64,000 nt of DNA, from assembly GCA_963827885.1 (NCBI GenBank), contig CAWHDD010000011.1, positions 44,184-108,183 on the forward strand, given 5' to 3'. Position 1 is the stretch's first letter. Each line of letters starts with the position of its first letter. This DNA comes from an uncultured Alphaproteobacteria bacterium (GTDB taxonomy: Bacteria; Pseudomonadota; Alphaproteobacteria; Rhizobiales; Rhodomicrobiaceae). The position numbers and the translations under genes are program-made. Below the pieces are notes generated by a model. It saw nothing but the letters and a program-made list of their open reading frames with translations. It searched no databases and was not told the DNA's origin. Of the stretch, positions 12,294 through 22,865 are shown piece after piece.

Positions 12294-12674
12294 ATGCGCG
12301 TTAGCCGCTGGGCAAGTTTTGTGGCGTTGCTGGGTGTGCTTCTGCACGCCGGGCTGATCGTTCGCCATAACAACTCCATGCTGGCGGCCGCGTTGCACCA
12401 GGAACAGGCCATTCCGTTCGGCGTAATGTGCAATGTTCCCGTTGAACAGCAGGCTGACGCCCAAACTCCGAACCAGCCCAATCCCTCGCAAAGCGTCTCC
12501 AAATGCCCGGTCTGCCTCGGGGCCGCGCCGGGTGTTGCGCTGACCAGCGCGGATACGCCCGCGCTTCATGCGCCCGCCCTGGACACGCCCCGGCTGACGA
12601 TAACCGCCAGCACCACGGTGCCGCACATCGCCGCCGTGCTCCCGCCGAGCCGTGCCCCTCCAGCAACCGCCTGA
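12294..12674 (+). CDS. DUF2946-like small membrane protein with CPVC motif
   Basis: 126-aa ORF with an N-terminal TM helix (WASFVALLGVLLHAGLIV), an internal Cys (VMCN) and a KCPVCLG motif. From memory this resembles DUF2946 proteins, which commonly sit next to TonB-dependent metal receptors. Confidence 0.5.
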   Translation: MRVSRWASFVALLGVLLHAGLIVRHNNSMLAAALHQEQAIPFGVMCNVPVEQQADAQTPNQPNPSQSVSKCPVCLGAAPGVALTSADTPALHAPALDTPRLTITASTTVPHIAAVLPPSRAPPATA

Positions 12675-12800
12675 TTGATCAGTTTCTCACTTGCCGGTCG
12701 CAGCATGCCGCCATGCCCGTTTTCCATCGGGCTGCGGTGAGCACGATCGCGCGGTAGCTGTCATCCGGCCGTTTGCCGGCCCGTTACGATCGGTCCATCC

Positions 12801-15052
12801 ATGTTTACTTCGTCCCCGTTCACACGGCGGCCGTTGACGCTAGTTCTGCGTCATCGCGCAAGCCTCATCTCCGCCAGCAGCGCCATCGCCCTCATGGTCA
12901 TGTGGAGTGCGGCGCACGCTCAATCGCAGCAGCCGCAGAACGCCGCCCCGCCCGCCGTGGACGCCCAGGCGCCGGCGCAAGTCACCATCCGCCCCATTGA
13001 TGTGAACGCCGCCAAGCCGCGCAAGGCCAAGAAGCGCACGATCACCGGCGCGCCCGCGCAAACCGCCGCCCAGACGCTGCCCGCAGTCCCCGTGCCCGTG
13101 CAGGCCAGGACGCAGCTCGGCCGCCTGACCACGGCCACGCCCGTCGCCGGCACCACCGTCGAGCGCGAGCAGCTCGAAGACGTCCGCCCCGCCGACATGC
13201 AGCGCGAGCTGCTGCCGCAGGTGCCCGGCGTCAGCATGGTGCGCAACCTGCGCATCCCCATCGGCGGCAAGGCGCTACACCAACGACCTGATGGACGGCT
13301 ATTCGATGAAGTCGGCCACGCTCGGCAACGTGGGCTTCCTCGACGAGGTCAACACCGCCGACATCGAGAGCATCGAGATCACGCGCGGCCCCGGCTCGGT
13401 GCTCTACAGCTCGAAGGCGGTCGGCGGCACCATCAACGTCATCACCCGCGACCCGCCGCGCAACGCCAGAAATGGGCGTGTGGGGCGATGCGGGCAGCTA
13501 CGGCCTGCGGCGCCTCGGCGCGCACGCGGCGGGTTCGTCGGAGAATGGCGCGCTCGGACTTTCGGTCAACGCCAATTGCACCTGCAGGACGAAGGCTGGC
13601 GCGACCGCTCCGAGCGCGAAAAGCAATCCATCAGCGGCAAGTTCGTGATGAAGCCCGACGCCGACACCAAGGTCACGTTCCGCTCCGAATATGTGGACGC
13701 GTACAGGGAATATCCCGGCGCGCTCACCGAGGCGCAGTTCGAACAAGAACTGGCGCAAGGCGCAATAGCAGAACCTTTACGAGGACCTGCACTATTAGAC
13801 CACCATGATCGACGTGAAGCGCCGCATCGGCAGCGGCGGCGAACTGACTTTGGCCTGGGTCAACCACAAGCAAGTGGGGCACTCAACGCCTGTCCGGCCG
13901 GATGCTCCAGCACGCGCGGCAGGCGACCACGCAAGTCGAGATGGATTACGACAGACGACAATCTGCGCGGCGTCTACCGGCAGGATTTCGATTTCCTGAA
14001 GTCGCGCGTCTATGCCGGCGTTGACGCCTTCCTGAGCGAGAAGAACGACGACACGTACAACCGCAAGAACTTCCACGCGGCTGGATCTCAACAAATCCTA
14101 TATCATGAACGAAACCACCATTGCGCCGTTCGCGCAGTACGAGTTCTCGCCGCTGGAGCGCCTGCGCTTCACCGCTCGGCGTGCGCGACGAAAATTACGA
14201 CGCTCGACGTGGACGACCGCATGCGCCGACCAACAAGGACGGCAGCAAGACCTATTCGACGATCTGGTGCGCAAGGGCGGCGTGACCTACGAGTACGCGA
14301 ACAATCACTACATCTGGGGCGGCATCGCGCGAAGGCTTCTACGTGCCCAGCACCGACCGATACGGTGAGCGGCACCAATGCGCACGGATCTGCCGCCGGA
14401 AACGTCGCTCACCTACAGCGCCGGTATTCGCGGCACGCTGGCCGGGCATGCGCCTCACCTACGACATCGGCTATTATCACACCACCATCAATGACATGGC
14501 GCGTTTCCATGCCGTGCCCGCAGACGGCAAAAGCACCGCAGTGTCCGGACAGCTGCGACTTCGCGCGACACCTATCCGTGGCGGCGGGCAAGGTTGGTGT
14601 TCGAGGGCATGGAGACCACGCGTTTCCTGGCGGCCGATCGATCTGTTCAAGCTCAGCGCGTCGCACACCTATGCGCTGAACACCTTCGTCGAGTATCAAG
14701 GACAGCAGCGGCGACTATGCCGGCAAGATCTACTACTACAGCCCGGATCATCATCTGAACGCGCGCGTCACGGTCTATCCCGATGAAGCGGTCTGAGCGT
14801 GGAGCTGGAGGCCGATTACATCAGCCGCTACTTCACCAACATCGCCAACACCGACACCTATCAGCGGCCCGTCGCTCTACAACATGCGCATCGGCTACAA
14901 GATGGAAGGCGGCATGGAACTGTGGGCGCATGCCTACAATCTGTTCGACGTCAAATACGCCGAGCGCGTTTCGATCAGCTCCACGGGCGCGCACCTACAG
15001 CGAGGGCTATCACCCGCTGACCGTGCGCGCCGGCATTTCCTTCAAGTGGTGA
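12801..15052 (+). pseudogene. TonB-dependent outer-membrane receptor, frame broken by many indels
   Basis: Signal peptide plus an Ala/Pro/Gln-rich linker. Plug motifs: VEREQLEDVRPADMQRELLPQVPGVSMV, IESIEITRGPGSVLYSSKAVGGTINVITRDP. Barrel pieces occur in several frames (ORFs 12801-, 13291-14679, 14343-, 14783-15052). The terminal ...LTVRAGISFKW ends in an aromatic residue, as is typical of TBDRs. Confidence 0.8.
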
Positions 15053-15059
15053 GGGCATA

Positions 15060-20917: not shown

Positions 20918-21644
20918 ATGGATAACGTCACACTCGTGCGCGACCTCACGCCCTGGGGCATGTTCGTCAACGCCGACCCTGTGGTGCAGGCCATTCTCAT
21001 CGGGCTTGTGCTCGCGTCGGTCATCACCTGGACGGTCTGGCTGGCCAAGAGCCTGGAGCTGTTCGCCGCCAAACGCCGCACACGCGCCGCGCTGCGCAAC
21101 ATCGCCGGGGCGCGCTCGCTGGACAAGGCGGCAATCCGCATCGGCGCCGCCGCAAACGCCATCGGGCGGTTTCTCGATGCCGCCAAGGCCGAGCTGGCGC
21201 TCTCCGCGGACCTCCCCGAAATCGCTGGCGTCAAGGAGCGCATCGCCCTCCATCTGCAACGCATCGAGGCCGAATACGGGCGGCGCATCGCGCGCGGCAC
21301 CGGCGTGCTCGCCACCATCGGCGCAACCGCGCCGTTCGTCGGCCTGTTCGGCACGGTCTGGGGCATCATGAACAGCTTCGTCGACATCTCGAAGCACCAC
21401 ACCACCAACCTCGCCGTCGTCGCGCCCGGCATCGCCGAGGCGCTGCTGGCGACGGCCATCGGGCTGGCGGCGGCCATTCCCGCCGTGGTCATCTACAACG
21501 TGTTCGCGCGCTCCATCGCCGGCTACCGCGCGCTGCTCGGCGATGCGCGCCGCCGAAGTGCTGCGGCTCGCCAGCCGCGATCTGGATTACGCGCACGCGG
21601 GCAGACATGCATCCGCTTCCGTCCACCGGCTGTCAGCGGAGTAA
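20918..21644 (+). pseudogene. exbB: TonB-system proton channel ExbB (one frameshift near the 3' end, about 21545)
   Basis: ORF 20918-21652 shows [28 protein letters not shown] and [27 protein letters not shown]. After LGDA the plausible tail ([31 protein letters not shown], stop 21642-21644) is in another frame. Confidence 0.85.
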
Positions 21645-21648
21645 ACAC

Positions 21649-22074
21649 ATGAGCATCCGCTTCAATCAGGACGACCATAACCTGGACGAAATGCACGAGA
21701 TCAACGTCACGCCGTTCATCGACGTGATGCTGGTGCTGCTGATCATTTTCATGGTGGCGGCGCCGCTCTCCACGGTGGATGTGGCGGTGGATCTGCCGGC
21801 CGCCGCCGTCATGCCGCAACCACGGCCGCCGAAGCCGCTGTTCCTCACCGTGAAAGCCGATCTCACGCTGGCGGCCGGCGAGGAAACCGTGCCCCGCGAG
21901 GCCGTGGGGCAGGTTTTGAGCCAGGCCGCGAACGGTGACAAAGGCACGCGCATTTTCCTGCGCGCCGACAAGACCGTCCCGTATGGCGAGGTGATGAAGG
22001 TGATGAATCTGCTGCGCACGGCGGGATTCCTCAAGGTGGCGCTCGTGGCGCTGGAACAAGCCGCCGCGCCATGA
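21649..22074 (+). CDS. exbD: biopolymer transport protein ExbD
   Basis: The ATG at 21649 gives [40 protein letters not shown], the canonical ExbD/TolR N-terminus. About 141 aa. Confidence 0.9.
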
Positions 22075-22865
22075 GGTCAGCTATGTCGTTCCCCATGCGC
22101 GAATTCATTCGCTGGGTCTTGTGCGGCACCGTGGCGGTCATGGCGCATGCGGCATTGGCGGCCGGGTTCGTGGCGTGGCGGGAGGAGCCGGACGATGACG
22201 GCGAGCCGTCCGGCGCCGTTGTCATGGAGCTGGCGCCGCTCGCCGTGACGCGCATGGATGTGCCGCTGGATATCGCGCCCGGCCCGGATCAGGTGCAGAG
22301 CGAGGCGGTGCAGCAAGCGCCGGAGGAAAAGCAGGCCGAAAAAACCGAGGAGCAGCCGGCGCCGGCCGCTGAGGAGAAGCCCGTGCTGCCGCTTGCCAGC
22401 GCCCCGGATGCGGAGGCAGCGCTCCCCCAGGCGGAAAAGCCGCCCGCGCAACCGAAGCAGGCCCCCCAGCCGCAGCTCCCCGCGCCAGTCACTTCCGCGG
22501 TGCAAGCGCTATCCGATCAACAGGGGCCGGTTGCTCAAGCGCCGGTGCAGGCCGCGCCGAAAGCCGCCCCGTCCGATGCCCTGCCGAAGTGGCAGCACCG
22601 GCTGGAGACCATCCTGGAGCGCAACAAGCGCTATCCCGGCGCCGCGCAGAACCGCCGCGAGCAGGGGGTGGTGCTGGTGTCGTTCGTGGTGGACAAGCTG
22701 GGCAGGCTGCAATCGAGCCATATCGTCCGCAGCTCGGGACACGCGGCGCTGGATGACGAGGCCATCAGCCTGCTGCACCGCTCCGGCCCCTTCCCGCCGC
22801 CGCCGCCAGACCTGCCGGGCGCACATGTCAGCGTCGTGGCGCCGGTGCGGTTTAATTTGCAGTGA
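22071..22865 (+). CDS. tonB: energy transducer TonB
   Basis: 264-aa ORF with an ATGA overlap with exbD. It has an N-terminal TM helix, a Pro/Ala/Gln/Glu-rich spacer and the C-terminal TonB domain (YPGAAQNRREQGVVLVSFVVDKLGRLQSSHIVRSSGHAALDDEAISLL). Confidence 0.9.
   Translation: MRSAMSFPMREFIRWVLCGTVAVMAHAALAAGFVAWREEPDDDGEPSGAVVMELAPLAVTRMDVPLDIAPGPDQVQSEAVQQAPEEKQAEKTEEQPAPAAEEKPVLPLASAPDAEAALPQAEKPPAQPKQAPQPQLPAPVTSAVQALSDQQGPVAQAPVQAAPKAAPSDALPKWQHRLETILERNKRYPGAAQNRREQGVVLVSFVVDKLGRLQSSHIVRSSGHAALDDEAISLLHRSGPFPPPPPDLPGAHVSVVAPVRFNLQ

Follow-up and report, generated by a model that had tools for sequence, protein, structure and literature searches.

What is an apparently exported relative of CobN doing in an operon of outer-membrane uptake genes, and which metal does that operon serve? 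The question is raised by positions 12294-22865 of the window, the whole analysed stretch of 64,000 nucleotides from an uncultured alphaproteobacterium of the Rhodomicrobiaceae (contig CAWHDD010000011.1). Eight co-directional genes lie there on the plus strand: a short leader open reading frame (ORF), a TonB-dependent receptor (TBDR) gene, a gene for a large CobN/ChlH-family protein, genes for a small MotA/TolQ/ExbB-like membrane protein and a DUF2149 protein, and canonical exbB, exbD and tonB. All eight were found at the coordinates given by an earlier note on this DNA, which had proposed haem or a corrinoid as the ligand and had described the leader ORF as a small membrane protein. The explanation favoured here, to which about an even chance is given, is that the operon would encode a copper-starvation-inducible module for outer-membrane uptake and periplasmic metal extraction.

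The metal is suggested by the leader ORF (12294..12674, 126 aa), which matched DUF2946 above the Pfam threshold (PF11162, 30.5 bits against a cut-off of 23.7, E 6.6e-7). CruR (Bp2923), a DUF2946 upstream ORF of Bordetella pertussis, works through its nascent peptide, which stalls the ribosome at a C-terminal RAPP motif and lets the downstream TonB-dependent transporter (TBDT) operon be transcribed; copper, which a conserved CXXC motif senses, releases the stalled ribosome and brings on Rho-dependent termination (PMC9426467). Members of the CruR family carry CXXC and RAPP about 45 residues apart, with RAPP 3 residues from the end, have an export signal, and stand first in the operon ahead of a long intergenic region (PMC9426467). 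Every one of these published hallmarks was found in the window. The CPVC motif of the leader occupies residues 71-74 (nt 12504-12515) and its RAPP motif residues 120-123 (nt 12651-12662), the spacer between them is exactly 45 residues, and 3 residues (ATA) separate RAPP from the stop codon. The N-terminus is hydrophobic and resembles an export signal (MRVSRWASFVALLGVLLHAGLIV), and the ORF is the first gene, with the TBDR gene next after an intergenic region of 126 nt (12675..12800). The 3' end of the leader is richer in C than in G (C 0.48, G 0.24), and a consensus scan found no intrinsic terminator in 12675-12800, which on reading of the sequence is a candidate site of Rho-dependent attenuation. 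The leader ORF is conserved in the relatives L082-L085 (L-numbers denote the fetched loci), and independent fitness data tie DUF2946 to copper. By its motif architecture the CPVC ORF is a CruR-type leader, predicted to respond to copper, rather than the membrane protein it had been taken for, and the hypothesis for the operon as a whole therefore shifts toward copper.

If the leader works as its motifs suggest, a ribosome would stall on RAPP when copper is scarce, Rho would be blocked and the downstream genes would be transcribed. When copper is present it would bind the nascent CPVC, the stall would be relieved and Rho would terminate transcription within the 126-nt intergenic region. The TBDR, energised by the adjacent canonical ExbB-ExbD-TonB, would import a metal-ligand complex. 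The CobN-like protein, tethered by a Pro-rich linker and a C-terminal transmembrane (TM) helix, would by homology most likely release the metal in the periplasm, as a dechelatase or a metal-transfer enzyme. The MotA-like and DUF2149 proteins would form a stator-like proton channel, which may couple the proton-motive force (PMF) to the CobN-like protein in place of an AAA+ motor.

Relatives of the operon were collected by a locus search with a trimmed core CobN-like alignment, using one genome per species. At least 593 loci encode a relative of the conserved CobN-like core; the census covers the best 80 of these, and 71 of the 80 extend far enough for partner genes to be read. The linkage of TBDR, CobN-like, ExbB-like and DUF2149 genes, to which the earlier note had drawn attention, is conserved: the CobN-like, MotA-like and DUF2149 genes adjoin one another in 69 of the 71 loci, and a TBDR gene lies immediately upstream in at least 46 of 68, a lower bound since several divergent TBDRs were missed by a single-sequence search. 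Homologues of exbB, exbD or tonB are also present in 27 of the 80 loci, and 15 of those hold the full set between the TBDR and the CobN-like gene. Two clades were distinguished by the full-length identity of their CobN-like proteins to that of the window. Clade A, at 55% or more, includes many Burkholderiales, Methylobacter, Methylomonas, Nitrosomonas, Marinobacter and some Pseudomonas sp.; clade B, at 42-47%, includes Massilia, Cupriavidus, Azospirillum, Stutzerimonas and other Pseudomonas sp.

Leader ORFs were sought in these loci by regular expression and turned up ahead of the module in at least 15 loci of the window's clade; most of those found end directly at the TBDR gene that precedes the CobN-like gene. 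CruR-like leaders of the RAPP type stand before the module in L010, L013, L015, L017, L018, L022, L023, L025, L029, L032, L037 and L082-L085, and leaders with a variant RGPP motif in L007, L009, L014, L016 and L001. The leader lies further upstream in L009 and L014, and in L009 it is followed by a second TBDR gene, which in turn precedes the module. All leader-bearing loci belong to clade A except L018, which has 47.7% identity to the window and is possibly misaligned. With L018 left out as an assumed misalignment, the regular expressions found no CruR-like leader in clade B.

Several individual loci have features of their own. Downstream of the operon in L082 and L084 are two genes resembling the copper chaperone NosL together with an ABC/FtsX transporter, which hint at a copper context. 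In Nitrosomonas europaea ATCC 25978 (L026:8389-12487) the CobN-like gene is split into ORFs of 354, 562 and 450 aa with the MotA-like and DUF2149 genes intact; the split either reflects an error of assembly or marks a true pseudogene in an ammonia oxidiser that depends on copper. A Caenibius metagenome-assembled genome (L079:2-13276) holds two tandem modules, the first ordered MotA-like, DUF2149, CobN-like and the second TBDR, CobN-like, MotA-like, DUF2149, and its two CobN-like paralogues have diverged strongly, sharing 30% and 40% identity with the window. In the Methylococcaceae and Methylomonas loci L004:5918-8246 and L056:4289-5987 the CobN-like gene is preceded by two genes other than a TBDR gene, which by eye encode a BadF/BcrA-type ATPase-like protein with a Cys-rich tail and a CcdA/DsbD-like membrane protein with a CTVTC motif.

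Other regulatory signals were sought around the TBDR gene. This gene (12801..15052) encodes about 740 aa once some 24 single-base frameshifts and 2 in-frame stops are repaired, and its product has 73% amino-acid identity to the intact TBDR of L084. Plug and barrel domains were called in the TBDRs of relatives, and the NCBIfam matches of the window TBDR are generic only and not CirA-like. Rfam, at the gathering threshold, gave no cobalamin or other riboswitch, and the idea of a corrinoid ligand was dropped because none was found. At a threshold of 13/19, Fur boxes were absent from the clade-A loci, L001 included, apart from two AT-rich low-complexity sites (L002 and L040); the region upstream in the window was read by eye. 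About half of clade B has Fur-box matches of 13-16/19 just upstream of a CirA-like TBDR gene. An Irr/ICE-like box was not seen by eye in the upstream region of the window.

The same search bears on the possibility that the operon is a zinc (or cobalt) acquisition system equivalent to PA1922-PA1925 of Pseudomonas aeruginosa. That operon encodes a TBDR called 'CirA' (PA1922), a CobN-like protein (PA1923), a MotA/ExbB-family protein annotated as ExbD (PA1924) and a DUF2149 protein (PA1925). It has a predicted Zur site and is induced 44-147-fold in a znuA mutant (PMC4542158), its promoter binds Zur in vitro (PMC8531726), and its proteins accumulate upon zinc depletion (PMC11761036); the literature still describes its function as unknown. 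In favour of zinc here, the window has an identical four-gene architecture, its CobN-like protein matches the same NF004644 model above cut-off, and induction and Zur binding are on record for the P. aeruginosa operon. However, a Zur-type 17-bp palindrome was lacking in the related upstream regions scanned (best 7-11/15 against the consensus used) and none was evident by eye in the window, and no zinc-related genes lie nearby. PA1923 is also absent from the 80 best genome matches, and PA1922 is called CirA-like, as are the receptors of clade B. PA1923 would therefore sit with or beyond clade B, outside the clade of the window, and a zinc system is considered very unlikely.

The CobN-like protein is predicted to lie outside the cytoplasm. 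Its gene (15060..19748) encodes 1,555 aa after repair, and the product matched NF004644, named 'cobaltochelatase subunit CobN', with 1,700 bits against a cut-off of 1,248. PF02514 was assigned to the orthologue in L009 with an E of 5.7e-286, and fragments of the window gene carry PF02514 too. The N-terminus (15060-15134) is signal-peptide-like, and canonical signal peptides are present in relatives, for example MKTFMKLLASLVLALSWAGMARA/AE in L084. Toward the other end, reading of the sequence showed a Pro-rich tether (19524-19583), and hydrophobicity marked a C-terminal TM helix, GLIWAYAWVLLAVVAAGMLW (19632-19691), which is followed by a basic tail. Both features had been noticed earlier and both are conserved: the N-termini are signal-peptide-like in 18 of 18 assessable homologues, and the C-terminal TM helix lies above a strict hydrophobicity threshold in 67 of 76, most of the others falling narrowly below. 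The sequences thus support a predicted extracytoplasmic, inner-membrane-anchored protein whose topology is conserved across the family. As the earlier note also had it, no AAA+ chelatase partner is encoded nearby; none was present among the Pfam calls of the five closest loci (10 kb on each side) or among the scanned ORFs of the window, a scan that was not exhaustive.

The name of the NCBI model invites another explanation, namely that the protein is a genuine cobaltochelatase CobN for B12 synthesis. The matches to PF02514 and, above cut-off, to the NCBIfam CobN model are as this would require. The signal peptide and TM anchor, however, place the protein outside the cytoplasm, no CobS/CobT, cob genes or B12 riboswitch lie nearby, true CobN structures differ at the position of His-1209 of HmuS (below), and the gene is always accompanied by a TBDR gene, a MotA-like gene and DUF2149. 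A biosynthetic cobaltochelatase is barely credible at this locus. Application of the NF004644 equivalog name to all exported, TBDR-linked members is almost certainly a functional mis-annotation; it misleads reconstructions of the B12 pathway and will propagate.

A closer model is HmuS of the Bacteroidota. In the hmuYRSTUV operon HmuR is a TBDR, HmuS a CobN-like protein, HmuU a MotA/ExbB protein and HmuV a DUF2149 protein (PMC11681262), and the BtuS1 and BtuS2 proteins of Bacteroides fragilis are predicted to be periplasmic and membrane-anchored (PMC6460266). HmuS was established in 2025 by genetics, biochemistry and cryo-EM as a haem dechelatase, with protoporphyrin IX and Fe(II) as its products (PMC12583661). 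The analogy with hmu drawn by the earlier note proved apt, since HmuU and HmuV have the families of the window pair and HmuS (9d26) is the best PDB match of an intact orthologue (E 2.8e-122, as compared with 2e-109 for M. tuberculosis CobN). By alignment to HmuS, the superfamily-wide His of a GTHG motif (within 17389-17415) corresponds to His-538 and the Glu of a DNISE motif (within 17503-17520) to Glu-577. The window sequence LLDRDHPFEY (within 18935-18973) aligns with LSLDHVYEF of HmuS and contains the Asp-His dyad D1208/H1209. The position of His-1209 is Asp in true CobN structures (Asp-Asp) and in clade B. With the dyad and the GTHG His kept, the window enzyme therefore shares the two-histidine metal site with which HmuS takes iron out of haem, the equivalents of His-538 and His-1209 being His-777 and His-1291 in repaired numbering.

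Other parts of HmuS are missing or do not align with confidence. The Met-rich insertion (domain IV) is absent, query residues 874-937 spanning HmuS 705-934 with about 165 residues missing. The N-terminal alignment is insignificant (0.8 bits); of the two site-1 haem ligands of HmuS, Met-79 pairs there with the Ala of GARLVIVD and His-254 has no assignable partner. Between the head and neck at the N-terminus and the body of the window protein lies a degenerate-repeat linker rich in Pro, Gly, Arg and Glu (about 15830-16440), in which a gap-free repeat finder reported six degenerate copies of a 49-nt unit encoding GRPSGRPQTAE and TRF reported no tandem repeat. Linker length varies, from about 45 aa in Hydrogenophaga through about 137 aa in L084 to about 195 aa in the window, and residues ~255-460 contain a single Met, so the linker is not Met-rich. 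Membership of the HmuS family has been defined by the six-gene hmuYRSTUV operon and at least 50% identity to HmuS of B. thetaiotaomicron, and the Met-rich insertion is present in all 680 of its sequences (PMC12583661). The CobN-like protein of the window is outside the family so defined, but plausibly works like HmuS.

Harvesting of haem iron in the manner of HmuRSUV, in which the TBDR would import haem and the CobN-like protein would remove Fe(II) and leave protoporphyrin IX, has to be weighed against this background. No solved structure is closer than HmuS, its bis-His site and Glu-577 are kept, the partner genes are those of HmuU and HmuV, and the Fur boxes (13-16/19) ahead of CirA-like TBDR genes make an iron role plausible for the sister clade. 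In the window and its close relatives, by contrast, there is a copper-type leader and the scans described above gave neither a Fur box nor, by eye, an Irr/ICE-like box. The absent Met-rich insertion, the weakly aligned Met-79 to Ala change, changes at Gln-1198 and Trp-1202, and the lack of HmuY and HmuT point the same way, and haem harvesting by this operon is judged distinctly unlikely. The haem or corrinoid ligand of the earlier note is probably wrong, given no cobalamin riboswitch, no Fur or Zur box and no Met-rich insertion at these sites.

Residues that differ between the clades were also seen in the body of the CobN-like protein. After the GTHG region clade B has five conserved His (window-repaired residues 842, 849, 853, 903 and 907, in predicted helices), and clade A carries Ser, Asn, Arg, Glu and Glu at these positions. 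Conserved His/Met positions of its own are present in clade A (819, 1291, 1351 and 1375 in the same numbering), including the equivalent of HmuS His-1209. These clade-specific patterns are candidate determinants of metal or ligand specificity.

The two small proteins that follow raise the matter of energy. The MotA-like gene (19745..20269) encodes 173-174 aa with three hydrophobic segments, TM helices by eye; the repaired protein is 88% identical to that of L084, its match to PF01618 is weak (E 2.4e-5 on the intact L009 orthologue), and no NCBIfam match was found. The DUF2149 protein (20262..20600, 112 aa, intact; PF09919, E 2.7e-28) has a single N-terminal TM helix with an Asp, Asp27 (within nt 20325-20357), that is invariant in sets of 18 and of 38 sequences. 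Its small domain would be periplasmic if its topology is ExbD-like. Coupling of the PMF to the CobN-like protein through this pair is proposed purely by inference, because the DUF2149 Asp aligns with ExbD Asp25, translation of the pair is coupled to that of the CobN-like gene, and many operons hold a full ExbB-ExbD-TonB set as well. The presence of that set suggests that the pair is not simply the energiser of the receptor and has a job of its own.

The pair could instead be an alternative TBDR energiser or part of an inner-membrane transporter, with the CobN-like enzyme working without energy input. The HmuS paper assigns HmuU and HmuV to powering HmuR (PMC12583661), purified HmuS is active without its TM segments, and 53 of the 80 loci have no canonical exbBD/tonB within 10 kb. 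Yet no TonB-like protein accompanies the pair, and in the 15 loci that encode a complete ExbB-ExbD-TonB in the same operon a second TBDR energiser would be redundant. Its translational coupling, moreover, is to the CobN-like gene rather than to the TBDR gene, and it stays behind the CobN-like gene in loci with a different TBDR family. This alternative is considered less likely than not.

Fur boxes in the sister clade and a Zur box in P. aeruginosa indicate that the core machine appears to be re-used for different metals. A broader proposal can be made on this basis. The CobN-like, MotA-like and DUF2149 trio may be a periplasmic (de)metallation machine driven by the PMF via the C-terminal TM helix and re-targeted by swaps of TBDR and regulator: CruR and copper in the clade of the window, Fur and iron in the sister clade, Zur and zinc in P. 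aeruginosa, and haem iron in Bacteroidota, with the clade of the window representing an unrecognised copper-acquisition pathway, which would be found in Hyphomicrobiales and many Burkholderiales and have leaderless homologues in methanotrophs and ammonia oxidisers. This proposal is offered tentatively and, taken whole, is considered rather unlikely.

A number of observations weigh against the copper module or against its proposed drive. The copper reading rests on sequence comparison throughout, and CruR function has been demonstrated only for Bp2923 of B. pertussis, with the related CutF studied in R. capsulatus. By regular expressions many clade-A loci (methanotrophs, Nitrosomonas, Marinobacter and some Pseudomonas) have no CruR-like leader, so that control by copper may extend to a sub-clade only. 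In NCBIfam the copper-receptor models (OprC, TIGR01778) do not match the window TBDR, and the homologous P. aeruginosa operon responds to zinc. Gln-1198 and Trp-1202 of HmuS, the proposed contacts of the porphyrin propionates, are not conserved, and a tetrapyrrole ligand is therefore uncertain. As for the drive, the likeness of DUF2149 to ExbD is limited to 20 TM columns (hhalign probability 27%, with D27 against ExbD D25), and an AlphaFold2 model of DUF2149 was too poor to use (pLDDT 56). Purified HmuS is active without TM segments or partners, a reductant being sufficient (PMC12583661), so the best-characterised near relative gives no reason to expect a PMF requirement.

The TBDR and CobN-like genes are spread over all three frames and cannot be read as single ORFs, and frames were repaired with frameshift-aware protein-to-DNA alignment against intact homologues. 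About 24 frameshifts were located in the TBDR gene, about 32 in the CobN-like gene, 3 compensating ones in the MotA-like gene (at about 19880, 20073 and 20083) and 1 in exbB, nearly all of them +1 insertions; the leader, DUF2149, exbD and tonB have none. The public record carries the same gene fragments (P0006 is 100% identical), and public gene calls inherit the breaks. About 60 frameshifts and 2 in-frame stops within 7.5 kb are what a pseudogene cluster decaying in its host would look like. Shifts that are almost all +1 speak against decay, as does their occurrence elsewhere in the window. A frame-tracking hidden Markov model (HMM) based on GC3 showed the same frame staircase at 8391-12101, 25692-26627, 35759-36881 and 54347-55818, with clean stretches of up to 2.8 kb alternating with frame-broken patches, and a uvrC-like gene elsewhere in the window has the same +1 pattern.

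Relatives from other metagenomes, with 75-89% DNA identity across 12283-22866, provided a second comparison. Every gene is intact and in the same order in L083 and L084, and also in L085 except for one split near the 5' end of the CobN-like gene. Fragmentation recurs in the other long-read relatives L001 and L082, whereas L084 is a MEGAHIT-type (k141) assembly. Between the repaired window genes and L084 the dN/dS ratio is 0.15-0.23, indistinguishable from that of the intact exbB, exbD and tonB. Because the relatives are intact, dN/dS is low and the same pattern occurs elsewhere in the window, the broken frames are attributed to noise; as far as these comparisons indicate, the operon is functional and its breaks come from poor polishing of a long-read assembly, and decay in the host is highly improbable. 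Patches dense in +1 insertions (about 1 per 100-150 nt) cover 8391-20590, 25692-26627, 35759-36881 and 54347-55818 and look like uneven long-read polishing.

The junctions between the genes are as tight as had been reported, and re-reading them gave the same picture as the intact relatives L009 and L084, where the gene overlaps are identical. The gap between the TBDR and CobN-like genes is 7 nt, the CobN-like and ExbB-like genes share an ATGA overlap, and the ExbB-like and DUF2149 genes overlap by 8 nt. Beyond a spacer (20601..20917) the canonical TonB system follows, with equivalog-level matches that bear out its earlier identification. exbB (20918..21652, end approximate) has one +1 frameshift at about 21548 and matched TIGR02797 with 300.8 bits against a cut-off of 206.2; after repair its true stop overlaps the start of exbD. 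exbD (21649..22074, 141 aa, intact) matched TIGR02803 with 191.5 bits against 153. tonB (22071..22865, 264 aa, intact) has a C-terminal domain that matched TIGR01352 (68.2 against 27.1, E 6e-19), and its product is 62% identical to TonB of L084.

The spacer is 317 nt long and had been described as structured. A long imperfect hairpin of about 120 nt is indeed present, although the minimum free energy (MFE) of -158 kcal/mol is only moderately better than that of shuffled sequences (z = -2.26). The spacer of L084 and L085 is 66 nt and does not contain the element, and no second copy was found in the rest of the window or in any fetched locus; comparison with relatives marks it as lineage-specific. 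Consensus scans for promoters and terminators around the leader and the spacer were uninformative. Directly upstream of the leader is a heavily frameshifted RND (AcrB/ACR_tran) efflux gene (about 8700-12113, plus strand), and between it and the leader a terminator-like hairpin with a T-run was seen by eye at about 12118-12150, which is absent from the list of the consensus terminator scan.

The host and the history of the locus were read from the rest of the window and from its relatives. PntB of the window is 83-86% identical to proteins of Hyphomicrobiales, Rhodomicrobium and Rhodomicrobiaceae, and a cbb cluster at 40376-49467 encodes a divergent LysR (CbbR-like), FBPase, phosphoribulokinase, transketolase, phosphoglycerate kinase, class II aldolase and the RuBisCO large subunit; the host is therefore taken to be an autotrophic alphaproteobacterium. 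The closest named homologues of the operon proteins are mostly betaproteobacterial. Phage-integrase, DUF772 transposase and IS66-type genes flank the locus in two relatives (L083:1-1921 and L085:37-572) and hint at mobility. Divergence from L082-L085 is mosaic, with 86-89% DNA identity (dS about 0.42) across 16145-20613, from the CobN-like body to DUF2149, and 75-77% (dS 0.5-1.8) in the flanks at 12283-15850 (leader, TBDR and CobN N-terminus) and 20905-22866 (exbBD-tonB). Taken together, the betaproteobacterial homologues, the integrase and IS flanks and the mosaic divergence make lateral transfer and recombination within the operon likely. Downstream, 22853-25691 has a lower GC content (0.56-0.61) and no clear GC3 frame signal, and contains a DsrC-like gene (23045-23395) and a minus-strand methyltransferase gene (24559-25407); this segment may be foreign DNA.

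Copper acquisition by Gram-negative bacteria under scarcity is poorly understood beyond OprC/NosA-type receptors and chalkophores. If the copper reading is true, a further copper pathway would be added, in the form of an operon that is repressed by copper and encodes a dedicated TBDR, a TonB system of its own and a large periplasmic homologue of chelatases. PA1923-like proteins, unexplained in Pseudomonas zinc studies since 2015, would gain a concrete role. Dechelation of the HmuS type would extend from the haem iron of Bacteroidota to a proteobacterial family with at least 593 genomic matches, seemingly tuned to different metals. The invariant pairing of the MotA/ExbB-like and DUF2149 proteins prompts one to ask whether proton-driven stators can drive enzymes in addition to transporters and rotors, which would be a new use of this motor family.

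Comparison with known systems places the operon among relatives at different distances. Classical CobNST and ChlHID share with the window the PF02514 fold family and the superfamily-wide His of GTHG. They are cytoplasmic, have AAA+ partners and insert metal in biosynthesis, whereas the window protein is predicted to be exported, has no AAA+ partner and keeps the company of uptake genes. The window pair may resemble the ExbB-ExbD, TolQ-TolR and MotA-MotB stator units, since it combines a small MotA/ExbB-family protein, with three TM helices by eye, and a single-TM partner whose invariant Asp aligns with ExbD Asp25. At 174 aa, however, the MotA-like protein is far shorter and its PF01618 match is weak, the periplasmic domain of DUF2149 has no detectable similarity to ExbD or TolR, and a cognate transducer of the TonB/TolA type is lacking, unless the CobN-like protein itself serves as one.

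The hmu operon is nearer. It too has a periplasm-facing, anchored CobN/ChlH homologue with a TBDR, a MotA/ExbB-like protein and DUF2149, but the window has equivalents of R, S, U and V only, without the HmuY hemophore or HmuT, and its sequence suggests regulation by something other than iron. The window protein would be anchored by a signal peptide and a C-terminal TM helix, and HmuS by TM segments at both ends. Only the body domains of the two align, in stretches that by eye are well below 50% identical, and the window protein has a low-complexity linker between neck and body and no Met-rich insertion in domain IV. At the regulatory end, the motif architecture of the leader is identical to that of CruR in the CruR-BfrG-Bp2921 operon of B. 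pertussis, and both stand directly before a TBDR gene after a long intergenic region. The cargo differs: CruR operons carry a TBDT with PepSY_TM, CopC, YcnI, Sco, PCuAC and others, whereas CobN-like, MotA-like and DUF2149 genes are found here. CobN, chelatase, DUF2149 and MotA are never mentioned in the CruR paper and its supplements (PMC9426467), and full-text literature searches found no link between CobN-like proteins and copper.

PA1922-PA1925 has the same four families in the same order, and the CobN-like proteins of both clades fall under NF004644. Control there is by Zur and zinc; the window has a CruR-type leader, a TBDR that is not CirA-like, and exbB-exbD-tonB attached. In general terms the module was already known from PA1922-PA1925 and from the 2025 work on HmuS; the more limited statement of the earlier note, that such a module lacks experimental characterisation in Alphaproteobacteria, is contradicted by nothing that was found. 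HmuS has likewise already established the idea of a CobN-like dechelatase that works outside the cytoplasm. What the present locus adds to these systems is the putative copper-responsive leader and an apparent division of the family into clades, each with its own regulating metal.

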